Assembly (NCBI GenBank): GCA_965368975.1
Contig: CBDUPA010000002.1
Coordinates: 128,001 to 192,000, forward strand
Direction of reading: 5' to 3'
Length of the DNA: 64,000 bases
Source: an uncultured bacterium
GTDB taxonomy: Bacteria > Acidobacteriota > Thermoanaerobaculia > Multivoradales > JAHZIX01
Below, piece by piece: positions 15,480 to 54,580 of this stretch; positions within the stretch are counted from its first letter, which is position 1, and every line of letters starts with the position of its first letter. A model generated the notes under the pieces. The model had not been told where the DNA came from and did no database searches. It worked only from the letters and a program-made list of their open reading frames with translations. Made by a program: the position numbers and the translations under genes.

Positions 15480-17455
15480 ATCCCACCCCGAATCTTTCGT
15501 TCCCCTTCGACCACCAGTGAAATCTCATTCACTGGCACCACGGTCATCGGCACCATGCTTTCGTTGTCATCCTCATCCGGTACCCAGATCTCGCGCGCCC
15601 CGGACGGCCAGCGTACCTCCAGCTTGACCACCCGCGATGCCGCACCGACACCGATGTGCACCCGCGTCGAACTGGAACTCGAGTAGGCGTTGCCGCCGTT
15701 GACCTCACGCAGGTAGGTCTCGCCATCGTCCGTGGTCAAGAGCACCCGCGCTCCGATGGCATCGCGGTTCGAGCGCGTACCGCGCAGGCGCAGCTGCACC
15801 CAGCCGCCGGCATTCTCTGCCACGGCGCGATAGAGCAAGGCAGGTTGGTTGGCGTTGGTCTGGTAGAGGTCGAGCAGGCCGTCGTTGTCGTAATCGGCCA
15901 TGGCGATGCCGCGGCCGTCCAGATCGTTGTCGACGCCCGCGTCGGCGGCCATTTCGCGGAACGTGCCGTCCCCGAGGTTGTGGAACAAGCGCTGCTTCTG
16001 GTAGCCGGACCAGGTCATGTCGCCGATGTCTGGATAGCTGTGCAGATTCGAGAAATCCATGTCCGGCGACAAGATGGCTTCGAGCAGCACCGGGATGTAG
16101 TTGCCCTCGCCCCTGGAGCGCAGGCCGTTGACCACGAAAAGATCTTCCCAGCCGTCGTTGTCGAAGTCGCCGAACTTGCCGGCCCAGCCCCAGTCGGTGT
16201 CGCAGGTGCCGGTCTCGCGGGCCAGGTCCAGGAAGGTGCCGTCGCCCACGTTGTGCCACAGCATGTTGCACTCACGCATGTACTCGTCGGTGATGTTGGT
16301 GACGTAGACGTCCAGGTGACCGTTGCGGTCGTAGTCGCCGAAATCGACGTTCATGCCCTTGCGCGTGTCGAAGCCACCGAGCGCTTCTTCGGTCACTTCG
16401 TGAAAGGTACCGTCGCCATTGTTGAAGAAGAGGCGATCAGTGCCGTAGTCGCCAGCCAGGTAGACATCCGGCCAGGCGTCGCCGTTCAGGTCCGCGTGGC
16501 CGACATCGAGCGTCCAGCCGGTGTGTCCGGCGAAACCCGCCGCCTCGGTGACGTTCACAAAGCCGCGACCGCCAGCCTTCTCCCCGGGAAGCCCGTTCTC
16601 CAAAGGAACATTGCGCCAGAAGGTGACGCCACCGCCGTTGTCGGCGTAGTCGAGATTGTTGGGTAGCACCTGCGGCGTCTCGAGATCGAGCAGGTTGAGC
16701 GGCTGGAAGTAGTTGCCGAGCAGGAGGTCGAGATAGCCGTCACGATCGGCGTCGAAGGCGACGACGGCAATGGTATTGCCGAACTCGGTCAGCCCCGCCA
16801 CCTGGCTGACGTCCTCGAAACGCCAGACGCCGGCTTCGTCGGGACCCAGGCTGCGGTAGAGCAGCGGCGTGCCGAAGCGTGCGACCAGCAGATCGCGCCG
16901 GCCGTCGTTGTCGTAGTCGAACCAGAGGGCGTCCGCGACGATCGACGAAGCGTCGTTGCCCCCCGCAACCCCTGCCTGCTCGGCGATGTCGGTGAAGCGC
17001 AGCTCGCCGGAAGGGATGAACTCGTTGCGCATCAGGTGATTCAGCTTTCCCGTGTCGGAGTCGGTGACGAAGAGATCGATATCCCCGTCATCGTCGAAGT
17101 CGCCCGCGGCTGCCGCGCTGCCACCATCGGTAAACATCTGTAGCACCTCGGCCTTCGGGCGATCGACGAACTTGCGCGTCGAGTGCACGAAGCGCACGCC
17201 CGCGGCGGCACCGATTTCTTCGAAGCGTGGCCGCGGCACGGCGGCCGGCGTCCCAGTGCTTGCCGGCGTCCCAGTGTTTGCTGGCGAGGGAGGGCTTGCT
17301 GGCGAGGGAGGGCTTGCTGGCGAGGAAGGGCTTGCTGACGAGGAAGGGGTCGCCGGTATCGAGGGGGGGGCTTGCCCCACGGCCGGTGTGCCCAAAACCA
17401 AGACACCCATACCCAGCATGCACACCAACGACCCACCCGCGAGATGTTCCATCAT
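15476..17455 (-). CDS. CRTAC1/UnbV-like FG-GAP protein
   Basis: Signal peptide and Pro/Ser repeat linker, DxDxDG repeats, GWTLD, KGMNVDFGD, WGWAGKF, and a C-terminal ASPIC motif. Confidence 0.9.
   Translation of the reverse strand: MMEHLAGGSLVCMLGMGVLVLGTPAVGQAPPSIPATPSSSASPSSPASPPSPASPPSPANTGTPASTGTPAAVPRPRFEEIGAAAGVRFVHSTRKFVDRPKAEVLQMFTDGGSAAAAGDFDDDGDIDLFVTDSDTGKLNHLMRNEFIPSGELRFTDIAEQAGVAGGNDASSIVADALWFDYDNDGRRDLLVARFGTPLLYRSLGPDEAGVWRFEDVSQVAGLTEFGNTIAVVAFDADRDGYLDLLLGNYFQPLNLLDLETPQVLPNNLDYADNGGGVTFWRNVPLENGLPGEKAGGRGFVNVTEAAGFAGHTGWTLDVGHADLNGDAWPDVYLAGDYGTDRLFFNNGDGTFHEVTEEALGGFDTRKGMNVDFGDYDRNGHLDVYVTNITDEYMRECNMLWHNVGDGTFLDLARETGTCDTDWGWAGKFGDFDNDGWEDLFVVNGLRSRGEGNYIPVLLEAILSPDMDFSNLHSYPDIGDMTWSGYQKQRLFHNLGDGTFREMAADAGVDNDLDGRGIAMADYDNDGLLDLYQTNANQPALLYRAVAENAGGWVQLRLRGTRSNRDAIGARVLLTTDDGETYLREVNGGNAYSSSSSTRVHIGVGAASRVVKLEVRWPSGAREIWVPDEDDNESMVPMTVVPVNEISLVVEGERKIRGGM
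17244..17350 (-). repeat. In-frame 18-bp tandem repeats encoding a (PASPPS)n/(TGTPA) linker
   Basis: About four copies of tgctggcgag(g/a)agggct-like units plus two copies of gccggcgtcccagtg. Confidence 0.85.
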
Positions 17456-41485: not shown

Positions 41486-44400
41486 TCAGGGTTGAGGGAA
41501 GTAGCCGGCAATCGTTCGTGCCCGCAGCTCGGGATGGTTGGGCAGTTCCACCTCGACCTCACGCCAGCTGTCCTCGTCCCCGGGATCGGCCGGATAGTAC
41601 CCGAGCAGATACTGGCTACGCAGCTCGCGCTCGATCTCTTGATAGATAGCGCCTAGGTTGTTGGTGTTGGGCAGATAGTAGACTCGGCCGCCCGAGGCAT
41701 CGGTCAGGCGGTCGAGACGGCCGGTGAAGTTGCGCATACCGAGGCTCAAGTCATCGCCACGTGCAACACCGGGGTGGAGCACGATCAGGTAGATCGGCAC
41801 CCCGGCCCGCTGCGCCAGCTGGTAGCAGGTACGGAACGGCATCTCTTCTTCTTCAACGGCACCGTCCGAGAACAGCACCAGGGCCTTCTTGCCACGCACC
41901 GCCTGCAGTTCGAGCAGCGAGAACACCACCGCTTCCCACAGGTCGGAATCGCCACTGGCCTCAAGGCTGTCGATACCGGTTACCAGACGCTTGAGATCAC
42001 CGCTCAGTGCGCGCGAAAGCCGAGGGTCGGTGTCGAAGTCGACCAGGAACGCCGCGTCGCGGTCCGACAGCACGGCGCGCACGAAGTCACCGGCCGCTTG
42101 CTGCACCGCTGGCAATTTGACGAACATGCTGGCCGACGAGTCGATCGCCAGACCGAGCGTCAAGGGAAGCGAGCCGGCGTCTTCGAAGGCCTCGACGCTC
42201 TGGCGGCTGCCGTCTTCCTTGACGATGAAGTCCTCGGCCGTCAATCCCTGCACCGGCTTGCCATCAGCGTCCGTGACGACGGTGTACAGCTCGACCAGGC
42301 GAATACTCACCCGTTCGGCGAAATCGGGATCGTCCGGGATCAGCACGTCTTCGGCCATGCGACCATCGTCGAGAAAGGCCGCGGCGCGCAAGAATCCGTC
42401 GGTGCTTGGCAGCACGACGCGTTGGCGTAGCGGTGGGCCGTAGAGCGTGGCCAGCAGCTGGTCGTTCCAAGAAAGCTCGACGCGATCCAGCCGCCGGCCA
42501 ACCGGCACGTTGACGTCGACCGCCACGTCGGTGGGACCAGGCTGCAGCCGCGAGGGCTGGGTCAGGAAGACACGGAAGTTGCCGCCGGCGTCGTTGATCA
42601 GCAGAATGTCGCGTCCGACCTCCTGGCCGGCGGGGCCGTAACCCACGACCCAGAGTGTGCGCCGCTGCGGCAGGTTGCCGAGTCGGATGCGTGCCTCGTA
42701 GGGCGGTGCGTCGACTTCGGCGACCTGCTCACCATCGAGGAAGAAGACAACCCGCTGCACGATGCTGCTCTGCACGCGCGCCTCGAAGGTCACACGGCCG
42801 CGCAGCACTTCCTCGTCTGGAGCCAGCAGGCGGATCGCCCTGGGTCGCGCGAGCAGAGACTCTTCGCGGGCTGGCCGTGCCGTCGACTCGGCGGCCTGCG
42901 CCAGCGCGCTGGTCGCTCCAGCGCCAGACACGGCAGCAACGGTGCCGCCCCAGGTCGACGACTCCAGATCCTCGACCAGCACCACGACACGATCCGCCCC
43001 GGTGGGCAGCTCCAGTTCGCGCTCGACCAGCCAATCCTGCTGCTCCGCCAGGCCGCCGACGTTGCGCACCTCGTGCAGCAGCCGCAGGGTCGACCCGTCG
43101 GCCGCCGCCAACCCGTAGGTGACCCGGATGTTCGTCTGCTGGCGGGCTGGCCGGGCGGAATCGGCCGCGGCGGAGTCGGCTGTGGCGGAATCCGCCAGTG
43201 GCGTCAGGTCCGTGCGAGTCTGCAACAAGCCGCTGCGCACCTCAGGAGCATCCAGAGTGTCAGCACCCCGGTCGGACGCGTCATCGCTCGCCGGATCGAG
43301 CTGCAACGACGACAACATCTCCAGCTGACCGTCTTCGAGTTCACCACGCAGCAAGCGCCGCACCCGAGCGGCAGCAACGGTTTCCGGAGGCGTACGCGAC
43401 ACCCAGGCACGGCTGCGCAGATTCCACTCGTCACCTCGACCATCGGAGGGGCTGTCGACGCGGATCGGCAGTGCACCGTCTGCCGACCGCGGCAAGGGCA
43501 CGCGCAAGGTCCAAGCACGCGCCTGCTGTTCGACGACCGGAATCAGCTGGCGCGGGTCCGCCACTGGCGCACCGCCGGTGATCCGGGCCAAGGTGCGCAT
43601 CGCCGCCTGGGCATCCAGCAACACGGGAGTATCGCTGGCCTGCACTACTTCTTCTTCACCCTGGAGCCGCCGACGCAAGCTCTCCAGCGACACCGAAACC
43701 CAAGGCACAGCCGTGGGCGCGTCGCGCGTCGCAGCTTCGAAGTCGTCGAGGTCGTAGGCGTCCTGCGCTGGTGCCTCTTCGACCTGCAGCGGACCGAAGA
43801 CCACCGGCACTGTCGTCCAACCATAGATCGACAGCGTCCGCGCGAGGTCCAGCACGAGACCGGAAAGATCGGGCACGGCGCCGCTGCGCCGCAGCTGTTC
43901 GGCCTGGTCGACGGGCAGGACATCGAGGTAGAAACGTTCCGGTTCGAGATCGAAGCCGTCGGTGATCCAGAACAGCAGGCGCCGTTCTCCCGGCGCCGGC
44001 AAGGGACGGCGCGCTACCCAGGTCAGTAAGTGGTCGACCTGCCGGCGCAGTAAGGCCTGCTCTTCGGCCATCGCTTCACGCACACGCTCCGCGAGGCTGG
44101 ACGCCGCTGGGCTGCTCAGCACGCTATCGTCGCGCCGCAGCCTCTCGACCTGCTGCAGAAACTGACGTCGACGGGTGCGCAGCTCGTCGCTGCCGCCGTC
44201 TTGGGTGGCCTGGTTGGCCCGAATCGCCCCTTGACTCAGGGAGCTGTCGAGCAGCAGAGGATCCCGGGTCGCGGGCAGGGTAACCCGTGGATCCGGCTGC
44301 GCCCGCACCACTTCGACGGCGCCAACATCGGTGAGCTGGCGTGCCGCTTCGGTGAAGGCGAGCGCGGCGCGGCGCAGAGTGCTGTCACCGGCCAGGCTGT

Positions 44401-44836
44401 GGTCGAAGTAGAGCACCACGTCCCACGGCGAATCGAGTCGGCGCAAGGGGCCGGCTAGCGGGCGCTCGACGAACTCGACCGGCACCCGTTGGCCGTCGAC
44501 CGTCACCGTCAGATCGCCAGCATCGAGGTCGAAGACGGGTTGGTTGCCGCCGTCGAGGGCCAGGAGGCGGAGTTCGATGCTGGCTTCGCCCGCTACCGCG
44601 GCTCCAGGGATCTGGGTACCAGGAGGATTGGCCGTCCGCGTCGCGGCGAGCGGGGCCTGAGCGTGCGTCGCGGGCAACCCTGCCAGCAGCAGTACTGTGA
44701 ACAGCAGTACGGCTGGCAGCAGAGCCGGCAGCCGTGTTGCTCGTGGGTGAGCGATCGGCGCCGGGCGCCGTCGGCGCTGTGCCGTCGAAGGCGGCGCAGC
44801 GGCAAAATGGTAGAAGGAGCGGTCGATCCAGTACAT
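41486..44836 (-). CDS. Large secreted VWA-domain protein (acidobacterial VWFA type; two VWA regions + Ig-like domains)
   Basis: Signal-like hydrophobic segment. C-terminal LVELYTVVTD..G.PV.GL...DF.V.EDG, MIDAS DSSAS, FSDG and LRSQYLLGY. Ig-like V.F..DG....APPY segments. Confidence 0.85.
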   Translation of the reverse strand: MYWIDRSFYHFAAAPPSTAQRRRRPAPIAHPRATRLPALLPAVLLFTVLLLAGLPATHAQAPLAATRTANPPGTQIPGAAVAGEASIELRLLALDGGNQPVFDLDAGDLTVTVDGQRVPVEFVERPLAGPLRRLDSPWDVVLYFDHSLAGDSTLRRAALAFTEAARQLTDVGAVEVVRAQPDPRVTLPATRDPLLLDSSLSQGAIRANQATQDGGSDELRTRRRQFLQQVERLRRDDSVLSSPAASSLAERVREAMAEEQALLRRQVDHLLTWVARRPLPAPGERRLLFWITDGFDLEPERFYLDVLPVDQAEQLRRSGAVPDLSGLVLDLARTLSIYGWTTVPVVFGPLQVEEAPAQDAYDLDDFEAATRDAPTAVPWVSVSLESLRRRLQGEEEVVQASDTPVLLDAQAAMRTLARITGGAPVADPRQLIPVVEQQARAWTLRVPLPRSADGALPIRVDSPSDGRGDEWNLRSRAWVSRTPPETVAAARVRRLLRGELEDGQLEMLSSLQLDPASDDASDRGADTLDAPEVRSGLLQTRTDLTPLADSATADSAAADSARPARQQTNIRVTYGLAAADGSTLRLLHEVRNVGGLAEQQDWLVERELELPTGADRVVVLVEDLESSTWGGTVAAVSGAGATSALAQAAESTARPAREESLLARPRAIRLLAPDEEVLRGRVTFEARVQSSIVQRVVFFLDGEQVAEVDAPPYEARIRLGNLPQRRTLWVVGYGPAGQEVGRDILLINDAGGNFRVFLTQPSRLQPGPTDVAVDVNVPVGRRLDRVELSWNDQLLATLYGPPLRQRVVLPSTDGFLRAAAFLDDGRMAEDVLIPDDPDFAERVSIRLVELYTVVTDADGKPVQGLTAEDFIVKEDGSRQSVEAFEDAGSLPLTLGLAIDSSASMFVKLPAVQQAAGDFVRAVLSDRDAAFLVDFDTDPRLSRALSGDLKRLVTGIDSLEASGDSDLWEAVVFSLLELQAVRGKKALVLFSDGAVEEEEMPFRTCYQLAQRAGVPIYLIVLHPGVARGDDLSLGMRNFTGRLDRLTDASGGRVYYLPNTNNLGAIYQEIERELRSQYLLGYYPADPGDEDSWREVEVELPNHPELRARTIAGYFPQP

Positions 44837-44918
44837 GGTAGAGGCGCCCCGGTCTGCTCGCAAAGGTGGTGCGGCAACCGGCGACGCCCCTAGAGATTAT
44901 TGGATCGGAGAGGTTAGC

Positions 44919-45716
44919 TCAAGCCGTAGCTTCCAAAAGCATGTCTTCCAATCCCAGAAGGCGAGCCATCTGCGGATCTGGAGCACGCACTTCCAGCGGT
45001 TTCAGGTACAGCGTCGTGGCCGCATTGATCGGCTTTGCCGCCAGTTCTCGCAGTGGCCGACGCTCGATCACCGGATCGCAAACGAGGTAGTGCGCTGCCT
45101 GGTAGATGACGACTTCGTGCTCCGGCGGATAGGTCTGCAGCAGAATGTCGACCAACACCTGCAACCCCTGCTGGTTGTACTCCTGCGACTGAAAGGTCAG
45201 GTCGCCGACGCAGCCCGCCTGCCAGATCACCAGTGCGCTACCGGGATCGAAGCGGCGGTGGGTCAGCAGAAAGTCGGTGGCTTCGAAGCTCTGGCAACCG
45301 ACCGGCCCCGGGTCGATACCGAGGTCCGCGAACAGGCAGTCTTCGGCCGAGATACCGGGCAACATCTGGGCCTCGTAACCCTCCTCGCGTGCGCGCCGTA
45401 CCGCCTCGTGCGACGGATTGACGAAGACCCCGGGATGACCGTAGAAGGCGGCGCAGACGTGCAGACCTTCGCGCACCAACTCGAGCATTCGATCGACCAT
45501 CTGGCCATAGGTCTCGAAGCGCGGCTTGTCGTCGCCGTAGAAACGGAACAGCGACTCCGTGTTGGGGTTGAGCGAATCGAGCCAATCCTGGGCCAGTTGA
45601 TCCGCCATGACGTAGAGAACGCGGTCCGCCCTGCGAATGTGTGCGATCGCTTCTTGGGTGGTGTGAGCACCGACCTGGATGCCGGTGCCGACGATGGTCA
45701 AAGAGCCAGCTTTCAA
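44919..45716 (-). CDS. Borosin alpha-N-methyltransferase (split borosin, SonM/OphMA-type; tetrapyrrole methylase fold)
   Basis: GSLTIVGTGI, Y60..R66..Y70, FYGHPGVF, PGISAEDCLFADLGIDP and GCQSFEATDFL. TTG start with AGGAGG 7 nt upstream. There is no fused core peptide. Confidence 0.92.
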   Translation of the reverse strand: MKAGSLTIVGTGIQVGAHTTQEAIAHIRRADRVLYVMADQLAQDWLDSLNPNTESLFRFYGDDKPRFETYGQMVDRMLELVREGLHVCAAFYGHPGVFVNPSHEAVRRAREEGYEAQMLPGISAEDCLFADLGIDPGPVGCQSFEATDFLLTHRRFDPGSALVIWQAGCVGDLTFQSQEYNQQGLQVLVDILLQTYPPEHEVVIYQAAHYLVCDPVIERRPLRELAAKPINAATTLYLKPLEVRAPDPQMARLLGLEDMLLEATA

Positions 45717-45756
45717 GGGTTCGCCTCCTAAAGGCAGTCCATGAGATAGGGAAACT

Positions 45757-45794
45757 CAACAAACCCCGGCAACCGCGTGAAGCCGTTGCCGGGG
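45757..45794 (-). terminator. Intrinsic terminator-like hairpin between the precursor and methyltransferase genes
   Basis: Minus strand CCCCGGCAAC-N11-GTTGCCGGGG (perfect 10-bp stem) followed by TTTGTTG. Confidence 0.7.
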
Positions 45795-45821
45795 CGACCG
45801 TGGAGAGGTATGGGGGGAGTG

Positions 45822-46079
45822 TCAGGCCGTGGCCTGGTAGATCTCGCGCGTCTGCACGCCGAGCATGATGATCGGCGAGGGTTGAACATCAGTGGTGAGA
45901 AAGCGCATCTGACTCTCTTCGCGGCGCTGCAGGGCGTCCTGGTGATGAGTGGACAGGCCGCTGGCCTGGAGAAGATCCTGCGGGGAACGGCGGAAATCCA
46001 CCGCCTGCATCGGGTCGCTGACCAGTTGCAAGAGGAACTGCTTCAGGTTGTTCGAGTCGTTGCTGCTCTGATGGATCAT
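45822..46079 (-). CDS. Borosin RiPP precursor peptide (borosin-binding/LigA-like leader + hydrophobic core)
   Basis: 85 aa with a GGAG RBS. LKQFLLQLVSDP....DFRRSPQDLLQASGLS..HQDAL fits the SonA-type helical leader, followed by the tail DVQPSPIIMLGVQTREIYQATA. It is adjacent to the methyltransferase. Confidence 0.85.
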   Translation of the reverse strand: MIHQSSNDSNNLKQFLLQLVSDPMQAVDFRRSPQDLLQASGLSTHHQDALQRREESQMRFLTTDVQPSPIIMLGVQTREIYQATA

Positions 46080-46339
46080 CTGGCAATCTCCAAGTAGATG
46101 AATTCAAGGGGGGAATTCAGGTTACGACGCTTGATGTGATGCAAGAACCTCGATGAGAGTTCGATCGAGGCCAGCTCTGCATGGGAGCTGAAGGCTCCGC
46201 GACAGACCGGCGGGCAACCGCCAGAGCGGCACCCGATCGGGCACCGCTGCCGTGCTTCATGCGTTCATGGGCTCAGACGAACGTCGGGCGAGAAACGTGA
46301 ATTTTCTGGAATTTTCTCTTGCCGGCGCCGATCGGGCGA

Positions 46340-49300
46340 TCAGCTGGCTTCTTGCGTGAGCTGCTGGAAGGTGGCGGCCACGGGATTGTGAACCCAGAAG
46401 CGGCGCTGTGCCGGTCCGGAAAGGTGGCCCGAGATGCGGCGCAAGAGAATGCCAGCCTTCTCCCGATGGTCGTCCCCAGCGCCGGCTTGATAGAGGACTA
46501 GGTGTAGCTCGGCCCGAAGACTCACAGGCATTCGGTCGTGTGTCTCGACAGTCTGCGGGTCTGCTTCCCCGATCAAAGCCAAGTAGGCCTGCGGCAGGAT
46601 GCCGGGAGTATCCAGGGAATACTCGACCGAGAGATCGGAGGCTTCCATGAGCAAGGGCCTTGCGGAACGGAGGTTCTCTCTCCGAATGAAGAGCCTTGCC
46701 AGCGACATGGCGATTTCCGCCTCAGCACGCTTGGCGCTAAGTTCTTGATGAAATTCGAGAGCGGAGTGATAGAGCCTCTCCGCCTGATCCAGATCGCCCC
46801 GAGCAAACGCCAGATCTCCCAGGTAGAGCGAGAAATAGCCTTCAAGATATATAGCCTCGGTCAACCTTGCTAGTTGCAACCCTTGCTGCAGTACCTCTTC
46901 GGCCTCTTCGAGCTTCCCCTCGTCCAGAGCAAGACGGCCCAGCAATCCAAGGGTCAATCCTTCTCCCTGGCGGAAACCGATCTCCTTGGACAACCGCAGG
47001 CTTTGCCCCAACTCGGAGCGGGCACGCTCGTAGTCTCCCAGATTGCGCAGTGTCAGTCCCAACATGGCACTGATACGCACTCTCAACTCGAGCGAATGCA
47101 CCTGTTCGACGTGATCCATCCCTGCATCAAACTGGCTCAAAGCCGACTCGTATCGTCCCATCCCCAGGAGAGCGCCGCCCACCGCGAGGCGACATGCTGC
47201 CTGCAGGTGAAGATCCTGAAGGTCCTGAGCCAGCTTCAGACGTCGCTCCAGCCACGTCAGCGAGTCCTCGAACTCTCCCAGTTGCAGTGACACACTGCCC
47301 ATGAGACCGAGTACTTCGGCGTGCAAGTCGTCGTCCTCGTGCCTTTCGGCATACTGGAGAGGAGGCTGCAGCGCACTACGCGCCTCCCAGTAGCGTGCTC
47401 GGTTCATCAACAGGCGAGCCTGCGCGACTTCGGCCCAGGCGACGCGTCCGGGATCCTCCGCGCTACGTGCGGCTTCCAGTGCTGCCACGGCCGTCTCGTT
47501 CTCTTCCTCGCGATAACCCATGAGGTCGAGACACTCGGTCTGCCGCAACAGAACATCACAGCGAAGGGCCGGATCAGTGACAACCCTCAGCGCGATCTGG
47601 CTCAGCTCCAACAAGGTCTCGTGCTGGTAGCGACGGGCCAGGAAGTCCAGCGCCCGCAGCAACGTTCGCCCCCCCCTCTCGATGTCGCCGCCGCGCAGGA
47701 AGTGCTCACACAGGAAGACTGCCTCGCGGCCGGAGATCTCCTCGGCCGGCAAGCTGGCCAAGCCTTCGCGCTCTTCGTAAACCTCGGCCAGGCGCCGGTG
47801 CGCCGCCCAGCGCTCGTCCGGTGACAAGCGGGCCGCCAGCATCTCCGGCAGTTGGTGCTGGTCAAATCGATAGTCGGTACCCAGAGCCCACACCACGCCG
47901 CTACGCCGCTCGATCGCCGCCAGCTGATCCAGGACCTGCAGGCGCTTGAGGCCAAGCATGTGTGCCACCAAGTCAGGGTCGAAGTTGTAGCCCTGCAGTG
48001 ACGCGGTTCCGAGCAAGTCGAGCTGTTCGTCGCTCAACGCAGCGAGGCGCGTCTCCAGCAGCTCGCGCACGGAAGCCGGAATCTCGAGCACCGCGAGCTC
48101 GTCGTGCAGGCTGTAGGCACCGCCCGCCGACGGCCGCAGGTTGCCGCGCGAAATCAAGTCGTGGACGATCTCGCTGATGAAGAAGGGATTGCCGTCGGCG
48201 CGCACCGCCAGCCGCGGACCCAACTGCTCGGCGGTGCTGGTCGATGCCAACATTTCGTCGAGCAAGCGTACGACCTGGCGCTCAGATAACCGCGACAGGT
48301 GGATCTTGCGGCAGTGGTCGAGCTGCCGCACGTCTTCGAGCTGGGGCACGCTGGTGCCCGAGCGGCAGGTGCCGATCAACAGGATCGGGTGGCCATCGAC
48401 CTCGCGTGCCAGCGCACGGAAGTAGTTCAGGGTTTCCTGCCCGGCAAACTGCAAATCTTCGACGATCCACAGCACTGGCCGCTCGCTGGCCAGTGCACAG
48501 GCGAGGTAGGACAGCACCGCCTGCAGAGCTTCCTTGGGCAGGGGTTCGACGTCGGCAGGGGGCAGCCGACCGCGCAGCAGGGCAGCGAACGCCGGCACCA
48601 GACGCGTGGTCAGAGACAGGTACCGCTGCAGCTGCGACTCGAGCTGGAACTCGCCGAGATGCTCGTGGACCGCCTGGAACAGTGGATTGACCGATGCCCG
48701 CGGCTGGGCCGCGCCGTAGAGCACGTGCAGGCCTTGGCTCGACTCGGCCAGGCGCTGTAGGAACGCATCGACCAACCGTGTCTTACCGATACCGGCTTCA
48801 CCTTCGAGCAACACGACCCTACCGCGGCCGCGGCTGGAGTCGCGCAGCAGCGCATGCAGGGTCTCCAGCTCGGTAAAGCGACCGACGAACGGCACCGCAC
48901 GCGAAACGTCCAGTCGGCGCAGCTCGTCGTAGCGGTTCTCCTGCCGCAGCTCGTGCTCACGCTGCTGCCACCAGGCCGACTCCTCGCCCTGATCGAGCAC
49001 TTCGATCAACGCCTCCGCCGAGCCGAAACGCTCGCTAGGCTCCTTGAGCATCAGACGCACCACGACTTCTTCCAGCAGCGGTGTGATGCGACTGTTGAGG
49101 TGGCCCATCTTGGGCGGTACGTGCTGCAGGTGACGCTGAATGGTGGCGCGGGTGTTGCGGCCATGGAACGGCTGCACTGTCGTCGCCGCCTCGTACAGAA
49201 TGACGCCAAGAGAATAGAGGTCCGAGGCCGGCGTCACGACCTCGCAGCGGATCTGCTCCGGTGGTGCGTACATCAGAGTGCCGACGAAGCCTCCGTCGCG

Positions 49301-49933
49301 AGTCAGCCGTTCGGTCCCCTGGTTGTCCAGCCACAGGGCTAGGCCAAGATCCATCAACTTGACGCTGTAGTCCGGCGTCATCAGGATGTTGGTCGGCTTG
49401 AGGTCGCGGTGCGTCGCACCGATCGCGTGCAGGGCGCTGAGACCGCGAGCGATCTGCAGTGCCAGTTGACGCAAGAGTGCGTCCGCCAGAGCTCCATGCT
49501 GGCGCATCAAGGCACGCAGGGTGCGCCCCTGCACGTACTCCAGCACCAGGTAGTGGATCGGCACGCCGTCGACGACGAGGTCGCCGGAGTCGTAAGTCCG
49601 GATGATCGCCGGATGATCGATCCGCTGCCCAATTTCCGCCTCGCGATAGAAGCGTTCGAGCAGCGATGGCACGTCGAGGCAGCTGGGGTGCATCACCTTG
49701 ACGGCGACCTGCGAGCCGATCGGCAGGTAGGGAGTCGAGGTGATCAGGCGAGCGCTGTAGACTGTGCTGGTCGCACCGCTGCCCAACTCGTTCTCGAGTT
49801 TGCAGGGACCCAGTCTTTGACCGACGAGGAACTTACCGGCTCGACGCGACGGCGCGATGGCGGCCTCCTCATGGACAGCGCTTCCACTACCGATAGAAGC
49901 GACCTGACGGATGTTCAACTCGCTCGAGCTCAC
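46340..49933 (-). CDS. Cytoplasmic Ser/Thr kinase-AAA/STAND ATPase-TPR protein (PknK-like architecture)
   Basis: Kinase motifs GSGATSTVY, VAVK, HRDLKPTN, DLG and GTLMYAPPE. ATPase motifs FVGR..EL, Walker A GEAGIGKT, Walker B WIVEDLQ and GNPFFI. TPR-like C-terminus. Confidence 0.9.
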   Translation of the reverse strand: MSSSELNIRQVASIGSGSAVHEEAAIAPSRRAGKFLVGQRLGPCKLENELGSGATSTVYSARLITSTPYLPIGSQVAVKVMHPSCLDVPSLLERFYREAEIGQRIDHPAIIRTYDSGDLVVDGVPIHYLVLEYVQGRTLRALMRQHGALADALLRQLALQIARGLSALHAIGATHRDLKPTNILMTPDYSVKLMDLGLALWLDNQGTERLTRDGGFVGTLMYAPPEQIRCEVVTPASDLYSLGVILYEAATTVQPFHGRNTRATIQRHLQHVPPKMGHLNSRITPLLEEVVVRLMLKEPSERFGSAEALIEVLDQGEESAWWQQREHELRQENRYDELRRLDVSRAVPFVGRFTELETLHALLRDSSRGRGRVVLLEGEAGIGKTRLVDAFLQRLAESSQGLHVLYGAAQPRASVNPLFQAVHEHLGEFQLESQLQRYLSLTTRLVPAFAALLRGRLPPADVEPLPKEALQAVLSYLACALASERPVLWIVEDLQFAGQETLNYFRALAREVDGHPILLIGTCRSGTSVPQLEDVRQLDHCRKIHLSRLSERQVVRLLDEMLASTSTAEQLGPRLAVRADGNPFFISEIVHDLISRGNLRPSAGGAYSLHDELAVLEIPASVRELLETRLAALSDEQLDLLGTASLQGYNFDPDLVAHMLGLKRLQVLDQLAAIERRSGVVWALGTDYRFDQHQLPEMLAARLSPDERWAAHRRLAEVYEEREGLASLPAEEISGREAVFLCEHFLRGGDIERGGRTLLRALDFLARRYQHETLLELSQIALRVVTDPALRCDVLLRQTECLDLMGYREEENETAVAALEAARSAEDPGRVAWAEVAQARLLMNRARYWEARSALQPPLQYAERHEDDDLHAEVLGLMGSVSLQLGEFEDSLTWLERRLKLAQDLQDLHLQAACRLAVGGALLGMGRYESALSQFDAGMDHVEQVHSLELRVRISAMLGLTLRNLGDYERARSELGQSLRLSKEIGFRQGEGLTLGLLGRLALDEGKLEEAEEVLQQGLQLARLTEAIYLEGYFSLYLGDLAFARGDLDQAERLYHSALEFHQELSAKRAEAEIAMSLARLFIRRENLRSARPLLMEASDLSVEYSLDTPGILPQAYLALIGEADPQTVETHDRMPVSLRAELHLVLYQAGAGDDHREKAGILLRRISGHLSGPAQRRFWVHNPVAATFQQLTQEAS

Positions 49934-50103
49934 GGATCCCTCCCAATCTCCCCTCCCCTCGGCTCTGCAACGAGACCGGATGCTTTGACCCAGGTTCCTC
50001 GAACTGAAAGACCGTACCAGCGCTCAGCGGCACTCTAAATCATCGAACGAAAGCGTGATGACGGTAAGGCAAAACGCCATTCTCGTCAAGGACCTTGGCA
50101 GGG

Positions 50104-50129
50104 AAACGGGACCGCTGCCGGCCCCGTTT
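50104..50129 (-). terminator. Putative terminator downstream of pccB
   Basis: AAACGGGACCG-CTGC-CGGCCCCGTTT inverted repeat, 22 bp past the stop codon. Confidence 0.55.
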
Positions 50130-50151
50130 GTGCCCCTCCCAAGAGCGGCAT

Positions 50152-51714
50152 TCAGAGCGGAATATTGCCGTGCCGCTTGGGCGGCATGGTGGCCCGCTTG
50201 CCGTTGAGCTGACGCAGCGCGCGGATGATGCGTGGGCGCGTTTCCTTGGGCTCGATGATGGCGTCGATGTAGCCCCGCTCAGCGGCCACATATGGGTTGG
50301 AGAACTTGTCCCGGTACTCCTGCACCTTCTGTGCCCGCACCTCGGCGGCCTTGTCTCCGGCCTCCTGCAATTCACGCCGGTAGAGGATATTGACGGCCCC
50401 CTCGGGCCCCATGACGGCAATCTCTGCCGTCGGATACGCCAAGTTGACGTCGGTCCGGATGTGCTTGCTGGCCATCACGCAGTAGGCACCACCATAGGCC
50501 TTGCGCGTGATGACGGTGATCTTCGGGACCGTCGCCTCAGCGAAGGCGTAGAGCAGCTTGGCACCATGCTTGATGATGCCACCATGCTCCTGCTGCACGC
50601 CCGGCAGGAAGCCTGGAACATCCTCGAACACCACCAGCGGGATGTTGAAGGCGTCACAGAAGCGAACGAAGCGGGCACCCTTGAGCGAGGACTCGATGTC
50701 GAGCACGCCGGCCAGATAGTTTGGCTGGTTGGCCACGATGCCGACCGAGCGGTTGGCGAAGCGGGCAAAGCCGACCAGGATGTTGCGCGCGTAGTCTTTG
50801 TGCACCTCGACGAACTTGCCATCGTCGACCACCGCCTCGATCACCTTGTGCATGTCGTACGGCTTGTTGGGGTCGGCTGGGATCAGGCTGTTCAGGCTCT
50901 CTTCCTGGCGGTTGGGGTCGTCGTCGCTGTGCCCTGTCGGTGGGTCGTCCATGTTGTTGGACGGCAGGTAAGACAGCAGGTCGCGAATCGACGCCAGGCA
51001 GGCCGCGTCGTTGGCGGCCGTGAAGTGGCAGACACCGCTCTTGGCGCTGTGTGTCGAGGCACCGCCGAGCGCCTCCTTGGTCACCTCCTCGTGGGTCACC
51101 GTCTTGATCACCTCCGGGCCGGTGACGAACATGTAGCTCGTGCCCTCGACCATATAGATGAAGTCGGTGATCGCGGGCGAGTACACTGCGCCGCCGGCGC
51201 AGGGTCCGAGAATGGCGCTGATCTGCGGGATGACACCGCTGGAGAGCGTGTTGCGCAGGAAGATGTCGGCATAGCCACCCAGCGAAGCCACCCCCTCCTG
51301 GATACGCGCACCACCGGAGTCGTTGAGACCGACCAGCGGTGCACCGTTCTCCAGCGCCAAGTCCATGATCTTGCAGATTTTCTGCGCGTTGGTCTCGGAC
51401 AGCGAGCCGCCGAAGACAGTAAAGTCCTGCGCGAAGACGTACACCAGGCGACCGTCAATGGTGCCATAGCCGGTGATCACGCCATCGCCCGGAATCGTCT
51501 TGTCACCCATGCCGAAATCCTGGCAGCGGTGCATCACCAGTGCATCCAGCTCGACGAACGAACCGGTGTCCAGAAGGAGATCGACGCGCTCACGAGCGGT
51601 CAGTTTGCCCGACGCATGCTGCTTCTCGATGCGTGCGGTGCCGCCACCCTGGCGCGATGCTTCGAGCCGTTGCTGCAGATCTTCCAGACGTTCTTCCACG
51701 CTAGTGGCGCTCAT
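50152..51714 (-). CDS. pccB: Propionyl-CoA/acyl-CoA carboxylase beta (carboxyltransferase) subunit
   Basis: [49 protein letters not shown] and HGNIPL. Confidence 0.93.
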
Positions 51715-51938
51715 GGATCGTGCCTCTCCTCCAGATCGACCGAGCCGCCGGCGGTAGCCTCCCCGCGGCGGTACGGCTCTGCGTTGTCAGAATGACGTTC
51801 TCAGATGTGGTGTTCGCGGACGATACCCGACGCGTTCCGAATCCGCGCACCGAAACGCCCAGCTTGCTTATCACATCCGGCCCAGCCGCTCCAGCATCCA
51901 ACCTCGCTCGGCCCCTGCTTTGCGATGAGTGTGCCAGA

Positions 51939-53261
51939 ATGCCGGCCGTGCCGTTTTCGAGTCTCGACGCCGCCGCCTTCTCCCGTGCCCTCGCGCAAAT
52001 CGCCGAATACCCCGACGACTTGGTGGACGTGTATCTGGAACGGCGTGAAGACGTCGACCTGGCACCTGAAGACGAGGGCCCGGGCCTGCGCGTATGGCGC
52101 GAGGAAGGCCTGGCGGTACGCCTGGTGCGTGACGGCCACACCTGGCTGGCCTCACGCGACACCCTGGATGCGCGCCTGTTCAGCGACGCCCTGCGACAAG
52201 TAGCACGCGCCTTGCCATCCGCCGCCTATCCGGAACCGCGCCTGCAGGTGGCACCGTGGCAGCGCGACCCTGACACCGCCGAGGTCCAGACCTTCCCGTC
52301 GGCCGTCCAGCGCGCGCTGCGCCAGCGTCACGTCGCCTTCCCCCTGCGCCTGTCGGTCCGGCGCCACCGCCGCTGGCTGCAAGTCATCGGACCGCACCTG
52401 GTACCGGCGCAGCAGCAGGAGAGCTTCTACAGCTGCGTCTGCGAGCTACCCTGGTCGCGCTTCGGCACGCTGCTGCCCGAACTCGGTGAGGCTGGCGTCG
52501 AGACCTTCACCGCCCAGCTGCTCGGGTACTTCCGCAGCCGTCAGGCGACGCCGCCGGACACTTGCCGCGGCGTCGTCGTCCTCGATGCCAGCGCCACGGC
52601 TGTCCTGCTGCACGAGGCCGTCGCACATGCGCTGGAAGCCGACACGCTGGCGCTGGGCGGCAAACCGGACGCCGCCATCGGCCTGCGCATCGGCGCCGAG
52701 GGTCTCAACGTGCTCGACGACCCCGCCGCCGCCCCCACAGGCGTGCGCCGTGACACCGACGACGAAGGCGTCCAGGTGAGTCGACGCTGGTTGCTGCGCG
52801 ACGGCATCGTCGAGCAACCGCTGGCCGATGGCGCCTGGGCGAGTGGTTGGGACGGCTTACAGCCCGGCTGCGGCCGCCGCAGTCACCGCCACCTACCGCC
52901 GGTGCCGCGCTCCAGCTACTTGGAGCTACTGCCTGGCGACTGCGACCTCGACGACCTGCTCTACGACGCCGACGGCGGACTCTTCGTCACCGAAGCGTCG
53001 CGCGGCAGCCTCGACCCACTCACAGGTGCTTTCACCCTGCACCTGCCCTACGCTCGACGTATCCGAGGCGGCGAGATCGCCGATGCGGTCGGCCCGTGCA
53101 GCTTGCACGGCAGCGTCAGCGATTTGCTCAGCCTGGTGCGCGGCATCGGCACCGAGACGCGCCCCGCTGGCGCCGGCTGGTGCGCCAAAGGCGGCGTCAA
53201 GGTACCCGTGTGGGCACGCGCCCCCGCCATCCGGCTCGAAGGCGTCGAGGTGACGCCGTGA
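51939..53261 (+). CDS. tldD: TldD-family metalloprotease
   Basis: LLHEAVAHALEAD (HExxxH), DDEG and the C-terminal CAKGG..VPV motif with the Cys ligand. Confidence 0.85.
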   Translation: MPAVPFSSLDAAAFSRALAQIAEYPDDLVDVYLERREDVDLAPEDEGPGLRVWREEGLAVRLVRDGHTWLASRDTLDARLFSDALRQVARALPSAAYPEPRLQVAPWQRDPDTAEVQTFPSAVQRALRQRHVAFPLRLSVRRHRRWLQVIGPHLVPAQQQESFYSCVCELPWSRFGTLLPELGEAGVETFTAQLLGYFRSRQATPPDTCRGVVVLDASATAVLLHEAVAHALEADTLALGGKPDAAIGLRIGAEGLNVLDDPAAAPTGVRRDTDDEGVQVSRRWLLRDGIVEQPLADGAWASGWDGLQPGCGRRSHRHLPPVPRSSYLELLPGDCDLDDLLYDADGGLFVTEASRGSLDPLTGAFTLHLPYARRIRGGEIADAVGPCSLHGSVSDLLSLVRGIGTETRPAGAGWCAKGGVKVPVWARAPAIRLEGVEVTP

Positions 53262-54580
53262 CACGGAGCCTGCCCATCGTCACCGAGACGCTCGAAGCCG
53301 TCGGACAGTTGCAGGAAGGACGCTTCTCCGAAGTCGAGGTCTTCCACAAGCGTGGCCGCTCGCGCCGCCTGGAGCTGAGCGTTGGTGGCCGCCGCTCCCT
53401 GACCACCCACGAAACCGGTTGGGCAGTGCGGGCCGGCGACCGTCGCGGCTCTTTCTTCGCTGCCGGCACCGGCGCCCCCAAGCCTGCTGGCCCCTGGCCC
53501 GAGGCGGACGGTGCACCGATCCGCCTGCCCGAACCTACGAGTGCTCCGAACTGGAGCGCACCCCCCGACCTCGACGCCCCCCTGATCGGTGAGCGCGAAG
53601 GCCTCAATCTGCTGGACAGCATCGCCGCCGCGCTGGCCCGCGAGTTGCCCGGCGCGCGCCTGCTGCAGAGTGCCGTCGAGGACGGTTCGAGCGAAACCTG
53701 GATCGCCAGCAGTCGCGGCATCGACGCCGCCTTCCGCAGCCGCCTAGCGTCCCTCTACCTCGAAGGCGCCGGCCCCGGCCGCCTCGGCCCCACCGCCGCT
53801 TTCTACCTCGCCGAACGGGAGGCCCGGCGCTTCAACCCGCTGGCCCTGGCCCGCCGTCTCGCCGATCGTCTGCAGATGGCCCACGAAGGCGAACCGCGCC
53901 AGCGCGACCGCGGCGAGATGCTGCTCGCACCGCCCGTCATGTGTCGCATCCTCGCCGGGCTGCTGCCCCTGTGGTGCGGGCCGCAAGCCGCTGGCCGTGC
54001 CGAAGCGCTGCAAGACCGCCGCGGCCATCTAGGCAGCGAACACCTGACGCTTCTCGACAACGGCCGCCTGCCCGGCGGAGCGCTCGAGGCACCAGTCGAC
54101 GGCGAAGGTGTACCGACGCGCGAAGTCGTCCTCGTCGATCACGGCGTCTTTCGCCATCCGTTGGTCCCTTGGTGGCAATGCCCCGACGAACCCTGGGCCA
54201 CCGGCTGCAGCCGCCGCCCCGGCTGGCGAGATCTGCCGACGCCTATGCCCACACACCTCTACCTGCGCCCACGCTCGGGCGTCAGCGTCGCCACGCTCCT
54301 GCAGGACATCACCCGCGGCTATTACCTGATCGACGTCACCGCCAGCGGCCACTTCGACCTCGAAGGCGATCGCTTCTCCCTGCCCGTGTGCGGTTTCGAG
54401 ATGCGCAACGGCCGTGCTACCGCCCCCATCGCACGCACCCAGTTGTGCGGTAGTATCTCCGCCCTACTGCGCGGCGTGCAGGCCGTGGCCCGTGACCTCT
54501 CCTTCCAACCCCTACGCGGCATGATCGGCAGCCCGACCGTCCTGGTCAGCGGCCTGGAACTGCGCGGCCAGTCCTCCTGA
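53258..54580 (+). CDS. pmbA: TldE/PmbA-family protein
   Basis: GTGA overlap with tldD. LTLLDNG....GALEAPVDGEGVPT, G..FSL...GF and GSPTVLV. It lacks HExxxH, as expected for TldE. Confidence 0.8.
   Translation: MTRSLPIVTETLEAVGQLQEGRFSEVEVFHKRGRSRRLELSVGGRRSLTTHETGWAVRAGDRRGSFFAAGTGAPKPAGPWPEADGAPIRLPEPTSAPNWSAPPDLDAPLIGEREGLNLLDSIAAALARELPGARLLQSAVEDGSSETWIASSRGIDAAFRSRLASLYLEGAGPGRLGPTAAFYLAEREARRFNPLALARRLADRLQMAHEGEPRQRDRGEMLLAPPVMCRILAGLLPLWCGPQAAGRAEALQDRRGHLGSEHLTLLDNGRLPGGALEAPVDGEGVPTREVVLVDHGVFRHPLVPWWQCPDEPWATGCSRRPGWRDLPTPMPTHLYLRPRSGVSVATLLQDITRGYYLIDVTASGHFDLEGDRFSLPVCGFEMRNGRATAPIARTQLCGSISALLRGVQAVARDLSFQPLRGMIGSPTVLVSGLELRGQSS

Follow-up and report, generated by a model that had tools for sequence, protein, structure and literature searches.

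What is a bacterial borosin peptide made for when its genes lie beside a receptor-like protein kinase? Borosins are peptides made on the ribosome and modified after translation (RiPPs), with an N-methylated backbone, and in split borosins the methyltransferase and the precursor peptide are separate proteins. Catalogues list more than 1500 putative borosin pathways from bacteria, but only a single product is known, whose role has been called elusive (PMC10549244; here and below, each paper is cited for the sections consulted). We addressed the question for a locus in a 64,000-nucleotide stretch of DNA from an uncultured Acidobacteriota bacterium (contig CBDUPA010000002.1, positions 128,001 to 192,000; hereafter the window). 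A first-pass annotation, made from the letters alone, had proposed here a split borosin locus directly downstream of a Ser/Thr kinase that is built as a signal transduction ATPase with numerous domains (STAND) and carries TPR repeats. The best explanation overall, which we consider probable with modest assurance, is that the borosin pair is functionally tied to sensor-type signalling proteins, including this STAND kinase. The tie is suggested by gene neighbourhoods, since borosin pairs recurrently adjoin sensor-type signalling proteins, most of them with TPR repeats.

A predicted split borosin pair beside a predicted STAND kinase

The three genes lie on the minus strand in the order kinase, precursor, methyltransferase. 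The list of open reading frames (ORFs) and Pfam gave the Ser/Thr kinase gene P0001 (Pkinase–AAA_16–TPR, 1197 aa) at 46340-49933, and the ORF list together with PDB sequence and profile matches gave the borosin precursor gene P0002 (85 aa) at 45822-46079. The stand-alone borosin alpha-N-methyltransferase gene P0003 (265 aa), identified by PDB and Pfam matches, lies at 44919-45716 and has a TTG start with AGGAGG 7 nt upstream. Orientation, coordinates and lengths were exactly those given in the first-pass annotation.

P0003 matched the Pfam family TP_methylase (PF00590, 4e-21). When its sequence was searched against the PDB, 25 of 25 matches were borosin N-methyltransferases, with dbOphM as the best (6e-62, aa 2-254), OphMA at about 3e-61 and SonM at 9e-58. 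The residues Y60, R66, Y70, Y92-GHP, F98, E145, W165 and Q166 were invariant in an alignment of 32 relatives. Y60/R66/Y70/Y92, F98, E145, W165 and Q166 correspond to Y58/R67/Y71/Y93, F99, E146, W166 and Q167 of SonM, where Y58, R67, Y71 and Y93 have been tested by mutation (PMC8429565). The positions of Y60/R66/Y70 and Y92-GHP, which had been compared with the OphMA active site beforehand, indeed keep the OphMA spacing. P0003 also has the motifs Y92-GHPGVF and SAEDCLFADL, invariant or nearly so in the 32 relatives; YGHP and DCLFAD serve borosin detection (bioRxiv 10.1101/2021.12.24.474128). The protein ends about 10 residues past the aligned methyltransferase domain and has no fused precursor or extra domain. 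For its nearest relatives among proteins (96% and 82% identity) no longer stretch of DNA could be assigned, and a metagenome scan for close relatives returned two short contigs only, of 1.1 and 2.2 kb.

Searched alone against the PDB, P0002 found SonA chains only, as weak matches (7 of 7, E 0.017-0.09). P0002 was then aligned with 30 small ORFs adjoining related methyltransferases. The resulting 31-sequence profile, with P0002 as its first row, matched SonA at 1e-15 and also the C-terminal clasp of OphMA (2e-4 to 2e-3). P0002 can be divided into a SonA-like borosin-binding domain at about aa 10-60, a hydrophobic core (...QPSPIIMLGVQ...) and the tail TREIYQATA, and its C-terminal part reads ...QPSPIIMLGVQTREIYQATA. 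The metagenome contig L087, which encodes a methyltransferase 82% identical to P0003, carries a partial precursor orthologue that reads ...QPAAIIIVGFQSPTYQAYA, which shows conservation of the hydrophobic core and of the YQA-x-A end in this close relative. A codon-usage gene caller gave P0002 a coding score of 27. Judged by sequence, P0002 and P0003 form a split borosin pair like those of type IV, which is a known kind, and they show every sequence-level feature of such a pair. The earlier split-borosin call, for which a comparison with SonM and SonA had been suggested, thus agrees with the SonM match, the invariant catalytic residues and the match of the precursor profile to SonA.

In P0001, Pfam identified Pkinase at aa 46-309 (6e-42), AAA_16 at aa 348-520 (1e-20), TPR_12 (8e-21) and TPR_MalT at aa 947-1106 (1e-16). 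The kinase catalytic domain (about aa 45-311; 49001-49801, minus strand) has the G-loop LGSGATSTVY at aa 50-59, VAVK with K79, HRDLKPTN with HRD at 175-177, DLG at 195-197 and APPE at 223-226. The DFG motif reads DLG, with Leu in place of Phe. By these motifs P0001 is a Hanks-type Ser/Thr kinase with a full catalytic set, and its kinase domain is 49-55% identical to those of family members. The AAA_16 P-loop NTPase (48374-48892, minus strand) has the Walker A motif GEAGIGKT at 378-385 and the Walker B motif WIVEDL at 489-494, and the TPR sensor region covers about aa 834-1106 (46616-47434, minus strand). No hydrophobic segment of P0001 exceeded the threshold. Because of the Pfam architecture, the motifs and this lack of a hydrophobic segment, P0001 is classed as a soluble STAND protein. 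Its architecture is that of the MalT/PknK build, with a predicted N-terminal kinase effector, an AAA_16 switch for nucleotide binding and oligomerisation, a helical arm and a C-terminal TPR sensor. In the STAND scheme the sensor binds an inducer and the effector stands at either end; the example given for a Ser/Thr kinase is PknK (PMC4381067).

An architecture like that of nucleotide-binding leucine-rich-repeat (NLR) receptors would also suit an antiviral (Avs-like) STAND or a defence gene based on the kinase, in which the borosin peptide serves as effector or decoy, and PADLOC matched P0001 to its PD-T4-6 and mad6 models. These matches cover the generic kinase domain alone (aa about 40-330), and PADLOC gave no match for the NTPase/TPR part, for P0002 and P0003 or for P0004, a protein with a VWA domain encoded downstream of the methyltransferase. 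The neighbours are housekeeping genes: YchF, a carboxyl transferase and a TldD/PmbA peptidase pair are encoded upstream of the kinase gene, and a succinate-dehydrogenase-like flavoprotein is encoded nearby. Neither mobile genes nor genes for defence were seen among them. We regard a defence function as highly improbable.

Signalling proteins encoded beside borosin methyltransferases

This genome has about 87 kinase-domain tblastn matches in 7.1 Mb, so one kinase adjacency alone proves little. We therefore looked at the neighbours of the methyltransferase in other genomes. In the same order the methyltransferase was present in 34 of 101 genomes, with 1-3 copies per 4-8 Mb genome, and all 36 loci outside this genome were analysed. 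A Ser/Thr kinase gene lay next door at 25 of the 36 loci; 21 of these had a kinase domain within 2.4 kb and 4 had a kinase of the P0001 type. Four other loci had a Reg_prop/Y_Y_Y histidine kinase and one had a cyclase-STAND gene 3.1 kb away. At the remaining six, one of which lies on a contig of 7.9 kb, no such partner was detected. The 29 newly fetched loci held 25 kinase-domain matches; 24 of them fell in the 166 kb that lie no more than 3 kb from the methyltransferase block, and 1 in the 279 kb beyond. Leaving the mechanism aside, the kinase link is statistically real at family level and not due to chance.

A wider sample was taken across phyla from 185,579 species genomes. It comprised the best 80 of at least 574 confirmed stretches, picked by similarity to P0003 and overlapping the order sample. 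Among proteins, borosin methyltransferases filled over 7000 clusters. Gene calls were made with the methyltransferase ORF forced, owing to shadow ORFs in high-GC DNA, and three more neighbours were corrected by hand. A SonA-like ORF was found within 7 kb of the methyltransferase at 58 of the 80 loci. A kinase-, cyclase- or SARP-type (Streptomyces antibiotic regulatory protein) signalling protein, most often with TPR repeats and often of STAND build, was present at 39 loci, which fall into groups of 13, 11 and 15; several of the other 41 lay on contigs too short to judge.

In the group of 13, a Pkinase gene lies directly upstream, and 12 of these kinases have TPR repeats and are mostly membrane-anchored. 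A hydrophobic segment followed the kinase domain in 10 of 11 tested, which would place the TPR region in the periplasm. The group of 11 has cytoplasmic STAND/TPR proteins with a kinase, cyclase, SARP or no effector. The partner is Pkinase-NB-ARC-TPR_MalT-GerE in L015, Guanylate_cyc-AAA_16-TPR in L011, L023, L024, L032 and L084, BTAD-NB-ARC/AAA_16-TPR in L039 and L050, and AAA_16-TPR in the archaeal loci L027 and L079. In L007 it is a STAND/TPR protein broken off at the contig end. The L007 methyltransferase was the closest relative of P0003 among the matches listed (58% identity) and the layout is the same, with TPR protein, precursor and methyltransferase; over 318 aa the TPR region of P0001 shares 33% identity with the protein encoded directly upstream of that methyltransferase. 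The 15 cyanobacterial loci have a Pkinase-AAA_16-GAF giant of 1650-2250 aa, 2-5 kb downstream of the methyltransferase, with the precursor gene directly upstream of the giant; 3 of the 15 were identified by Pfam and the others by BLAST. In a methyltransferase tree the partner type tracked the clades: 18 changes were counted, and shuffling gave a mean of 44. Kinship alone would give such clustering, so that all the tree shows is an old age of the links.

The variety of partners bears on the idea that the kinase is a tailoring enzyme, whose TPR part would hold the precursor while its kinase part phosphorylates Ser/Thr residues of the core or close to it, in the manner of the kinase domains found in class III/IV lanthipeptide synthetases. 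Cyclase- or SARP-effector partners cannot tailor a peptide, and several kinase-linked precursor cores are without Ser/Thr, for example ...RYAAAAKINIQD and ...GYAAALLINVP. The tail of P0002 does hold T, S and Y residues, and the NCBIfam search gave matches that would fit the idea, to LanL (8e-25) and LanKC (2.5e-11) in the kinase domain and, weakly, to the RiPP biosynthesis TPR protein HaaT (5e-8) in the TPR region; all three are far under the family cut-offs. To our knowledge a STAND switch domain is not a feature of the RiPP kinases known so far, which also counts against it. We think a tailoring role very unlikely.

The surveyed loci showed further variants. In the conserved cyanobacterial cluster (L019 10871-18912 and 14 further loci) the methyltransferase is followed by two small proteins with TPR repeats, then by a precursor whose tail is rich in Pro and Asp (...PDPLPDPDP...), and then by the giant. 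The giants end in SpoIIE, PAS-AAA_35 or HisKA-HATPase-receiver, and in four loci an AAA_35 protein is encoded directly upstream. In receptor-kinase loci of Thermoanaerobaculia and other Acidobacteriota (L016, L022, L042, L046, L063, L069, L073 and L086) the precursor is on the strand opposite the kinase and the methyltransferase (e.g. L016 9722-9940, minus). It is divergent from the methyltransferase, the two starts being only about 60 bp apart. Tandem methyltransferase domains, several of them in one frame of ~520-550 aa, were found at G057:C59:69733-71256, G047:C10:72567-74108 and other places (L163, L167), and resemble the duplicated fused type IX enzyme of a 2021 preprint (bioRxiv 10.1101/2021.12.24.474128). 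In L154, L155, L157, L160, L166, L170 and L174 an adenylate/guanylate cyclase-like gene of ~520-540 aa, recognised only by BLAST with Pfam-verified cyclase pieces, lies 0.4-2 kb from the methyltransferase block on the side opposite the kinase.

Borosin genes beside relatives of the kinase

The link was also followed from the kinase. With the STAND-TPR part of P0001 as query (E<1e-40), close relatives were found at 10 places in the 101 genomes of the order, this genome excluded. At 4 of the 10 a borosin methyltransferase lay within 2 kb, in three different layouts: that of the window in L149/L007, co-oriented with one gene between in L140, and convergent in L138 and L139. Another 4 places (L141-L144, all from the window's own family) have an orthologue of the VWA protein directly downstream of the kinase and no borosin pair, and 2 end at contig ends. 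In the window, the VWA protein P0004 (1125 aa; TIGR03436 acidobact_VWFA, 1e-57) is encoded at 41486-44863 on the minus strand. The VWA orthologues of L141-L144 are 41-45% identical, and the distance from the kinase gene ranges from a 97-bp overlap to 422 bp.

The kinase and the VWA protein could thus be the real conserved pair, between which a two-gene borosin cassette has landed by accident, with no functional link to the kinase at this locus. The four VWA-only loci, the genomes with a kinase but no methyltransferase match and the cassette's own spacer, ribosome-binding sites and hairpin (described below) would all fit this. A chance recurrence is very unlikely for 4 of 10 kinase family members within 2 kb of a methyltransferase of 1-3 copies per 4-8 Mb genome, and the 24 of 25 kinase matches within 3 kb of the methyltransferase also speak against it. 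The kinase tree, a quick IQ-TREE search in which two rows are fragments, is informative here. The 10 relatives and the window form one clade with a support of 97 in the SH-like approximate likelihood-ratio test (SH-aLRT), and borosin-linked members stand on both sides of the basal split. One subclade consists of L138-L140 (97), the other of the window, L149 and the VWA-only clade (81); the VWA-only clade itself has 97, and the window kinase falls outside it. Loss of the pair in the VWA-only clade is more parsimonious, because it takes two changes, against three for independent gains. A plain insertion of the pair between kinase and VWA gene had been our first reading; the tree makes the loss at least as likely, and this reading was dropped. 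We conclude that an accidental neighbourhood is quite unlikely.

In the L138-L140 subclade, the P0001-like kinase is followed by a conserved protein of ~400-450 aa that has a hydrophobic segment at its N-terminus and matches no Pfam family (L139 7356-8699, minus; L140 8588-9868, plus; L138 1193-2209, minus). This protein takes the place that the VWA protein has in the other subclade.

The arrangement of the window's genes is relevant to whether pair and kinase act together. A spacer of 260 bp (46080-46339, minus strand) lies between the stop codon of the kinase gene and the ATG of the precursor gene, with GGAG 8 nt before this ATG; the gap between precursor and methyltransferase is 105 bp. In this second gap a G+C-rich hairpin followed by UUUGUUGAGUUU was found by folding (45755-45805, minus strand; -31.5 kcal/mol, z -3.45), and 0 of 200 shuffled sequences were equally stable. 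It had been picked out by eye and was folded separately from a consensus scan of 44600-50300, which returned 0 promoter-like sites, with no sigma-70-like consensus in the 260-bp spacer, and 0 terminator-like sites. By reading of the fold, its outer loop looks longer than the 3-8 nt that the terminator scan permits. An Rfam search of 44500-50300 at E<=1 gave no match. Because of the 260-bp spacer, its own ribosome-binding sites and the strong hairpin after the precursor gene, the borosin pair looks like a transcription unit of its own, separate from the kinase. The hairpin is a possible attenuator that would favour the precursor over the enzyme and so set the precursor-to-enzyme ratio.

Several observations weigh against a functional tie. 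The pair is apparently transcribed apart from the kinase. The four VWA-only loci have the kinase without the pair, and in G001, a genome that is 94% complete and holds the best kinase orthologue, no borosin methyltransferase was found with the family profile at E<=1e-5. In a phylum sample of 401 genomes, with only two candidates scored per genome, a further 4 P0001-like places came from two genomes of Acidobacteriota, G103 and G121 (90% and 83% complete), and neither genome gave a methyltransferase match. A second split borosin pair of this genome has no Ser/Thr kinase beside it (G000:C10:83193-84431; L006 9188-10477). Two Reg_prop/Y_Y_Y sensor histidine kinases are encoded directly upstream of its 78-aa precursor and its 285-aa methyltransferase (54% identical to P0003), and a response-regulator-LpxC fusion lies on the downstream side. 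Finally, the sampled genomes are related and hence not independent, and the 80 loci were chosen for their similarity to P0003. Since relatives of P0001 occur without the pair (L141-L144, G001, G103, G121), a P0001-type sensor does not need a borosin peptide.

The histidine-kinase layout of the second pair was seen again in three genomes of the same family (L145/L030, L147, L148) and in L150.

Taken together, the link between kinase and borosin genes is facultative. The first-pass annotation had made the coupling depend on synteny in related genomes, and this synteny does recur. A fixed three-gene module it is not: four orthologues of the same family pass from kinase to VWA gene, and G001 gave no methyltransferase match.

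Paralogous triads and the proposed role of the peptide

If the pair and its sensors are functionally tied, the peptide may be the input or the output of the signalling protein. Tandem triads of kinase, precursor and methyltransferase genes were found at L152 6068-16925 (three) and at L158 6188-13543 (two), each consisting of a receptor kinase, an antisense precursor and a methyltransferase. Between the paralogues of these triads identity reaches 90-99% in the kinase domains and only 36-49% in the TPR domains; it is 56-58% in the methyltransferases, and the cores of the precursors are different. A conserved output together with a diverged sensor and peptide resembles insulated receptor-ligand pairs, and the triads therefore favour the peptide as input. 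Sensor domains tend to diverge faster in general, and the pattern could reflect gene conversion of the kinase part as well as sensor diversification. In L152 the third kinase and the third methyltransferase enclose an ORF (15601-16086, minus strand) with a long polybasic repeat (...RRSRRRPRRS...) in place of a recognisable SonA-like precursor.

The outputs of the partners vary: kinase, cyclase, SARP, LuxR and histidine kinase in our loci and GGDEF in the literature. Varied outputs beside a constant peptide-enzyme pair likewise point to the peptide as input. The opposite direction would make the kinase a cluster-situated regulator, whose sensor reads some other cue and which phosphorylates a transcription factor, the methyltransferase or the precursor, with the borosin as output. 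Some partners have outputs that bind DNA, as is typical for pathway-specific activators (BTAD/SARP-NB-ARC-TPR in L039 and L050, Pkinase-NB-ARC-TPR-GerE in L015), and kinase relatives without any borosin fit a sensor with its own independent input. Most partner outputs, namely kinase, cyclase and the GGDEF of the literature, do not bind DNA. In the tandem triads the sensor domain diverges with peptide and enzyme and the output domain does not, and among the Pfam-scanned ORFs of the window's locus there is no transcription factor gene. On this evidence we hold a purely regulatory kinase to be unlikely.

For the peptide as input, the following sequence of events can be proposed. The precursor would dock through its helical borosin-binding domain onto the methyltransferase, an S-adenosylmethionine-dependent enzyme of the SonM/OphMA type, which would add methyl groups to backbone amides of the short hydrophobic core, around PIIMLGV. 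The matured N-methylated peptide would be the inducer perceived by the TPR/arm sensor. Its binding may open the nucleotide-binding oligomerisation domain, drive ATP-dependent oligomerisation and turn the kinase on. Taken alone, this mechanism is possible, and we put it forward tentatively, as somewhat doubtful. A complex prediction with the arm-sensor part of P0001 (aa 640-1197, 10-row alignment) and the precursor (31-row alignment) scored 0.00 in both runs; its controls did not fold, and it weighs neither way.

Backbone N-methylation is reported to confer membrane permeability (PMC8429565). This could explain that no transporter is encoded and that the sensors are cytoplasmic or periplasmic. 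Carried further, the split borosins of bacteria and archaea might be membrane-permeant peptide signals and not antibiotics-in-waiting, with the adjoining sensor proteins, mostly TPR proteins, as their receptors and the different outputs as read-outs of one input; we offer this wider proposal with still more reserve, as unlikely in its full breadth. If it is true, the receptor in the window would be a cytoplasmic NLR-like (STAND) Ser/Thr kinase, in a peptide-to-STAND-kinase pathway that is so far undescribed. If the peptide switches the sensor, a modified-peptide ligand would join the short list of known STAND inducers. The pair travels with kinases, cyclases and SARP regulators in Acidobacteriota, Chloroflexota, Cyanobacteriota, Actinomycetota and Methanomassiliicoccales, and this pairing turns the purpose of bacterial borosins into a concrete question: does the N-methylated peptide switch the adjoining sensor?

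Surroundings of the locus

Sixteen ORFs of the window between 33.4 and 58.7 kb were scanned with Pfam, and no transporter, GGDEF protein or further tailoring enzyme was among them. This matches the earlier statement that neither a transporter nor another tailoring enzyme is adjacent. The nearest peptidase genes are the TldD/PmbA-type metallopeptidase pair at 51720-53261 and about 53270-54580 (plus strand), 1.8 kb upstream of the kinase gene. The leader of microcin B17 is removed by TldD/E of E. coli (PMC5810440), which makes this pair a candidate leader peptidase. In the four orthologous loci L141-L144 the TldD/PmbA pair does not adjoin the kinase.

Comparison with known systems

The best NCBIfam match of P0001 was TIGR03903 (5.5e-72), with 243 bits against a cut-off of 705.75. 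This family is the kinase/cyclase fusion of thiazole/oxazole-modified microcin (TOMM) systems, encoded beside thiazole/oxazole RiPP clusters, and a precedent for a large kinase-containing signalling protein adjoining a RiPP cluster. P0001 differs from it in staying below the cut-off, in having no cyclase domain (there was no Guanylate_cyc match in its Pfam scan) and in the class of the RiPP. By description, the locus can also be likened to the RRNPP systems of Firmicutes (Rap, NprR, PlcR, PrgX), where a small peptide signal and its cytoplasmic TPR receptor are encoded side by side. RRNPP peptides are unmodified, secreted and re-imported, and their receptors have helix-turn-helix or phosphatase outputs and no NTPase switch.

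With the STANDs of the MalT/PknK type, P0001 shares the nucleotide-binding oligomerisation domain, the arm and a TPR-like sensor (TPR_MalT, 1e-16) with an effector at one end (PMC4381067). The effector of MalT is a DNA-binding domain and its inducer is maltotriose, whereas the effector of P0001 is a kinase; in the sections of PMC4381067 consulted, no peptide inducer or RiPP neighbour is described for MalT/PknK. The fungal type I enzymes OphMA and dbOphMA (PDB 5N0N, 6MJF) provided the best match for the methyltransferase domain, with identical Y/R/Y/Y-GHP spacing. In fungal OphMA, enzyme and substrate are one polypeptide that acts in trans within the dimer, whereas the window has two genes.

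For bacterial split borosins, GGDEF is the commonest Pfam domain in the clusters, at 56% (bioRxiv 10.1101/2021.12.24.474128). The link of published loci to GGDEF proteins, which the first-pass annotation had stated together with a largely obscure product function, is thus confirmed, and the native role has been called elusive (PMC10549244). A Ser/Thr kinase partner is absent from the borosin literature searched: in the sections of PMC8429565 and PMC10549244 consulted, 'kinase' refers to T4 polynucleotide kinase, and the word does not occur in the main text of two borosin-mining preprints or in PMC11395268. These statements cover the texts, the frequent-domain table of the 2021 preprint and the other tabulated domains lying outside their scope. 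TPR is mentioned in the sections searched only as the periplasmic domain of GGDEF partners. As far as this literature goes, the STAND-kinase partner and the wider pattern of sensor partners with interchangeable outputs are new.

The closest known system is SonM/SonA, the type IV pair of Shewanella oneidensis MR-1 (PDB 7LTC; PMC8429565), with shewanellamide A as its product (PMC10549244). Both systems have a stand-alone methyltransferase of ~260 aa with the same key residues, and a separate precursor, in which a helical borosin-binding domain is combined with a short core at the C-terminus. Both loci lack a protease or further tailoring enzyme, and in both a signalling protein adjoins. The precursors share ~20% identity or less outside the binding domain, and the core PIIMLGV with its 11-residue tail in P0002 is unlike that of SonA; methylation by the window's pair is predicted. 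In the Shewanella cluster a GGDEF protein and a cation efflux pump stand beside the pair (PMC10549244). Neither was found among the 16 ORFs of the window, where the partner is instead a soluble Pkinase-AAA_16-TPR protein of the STAND class.

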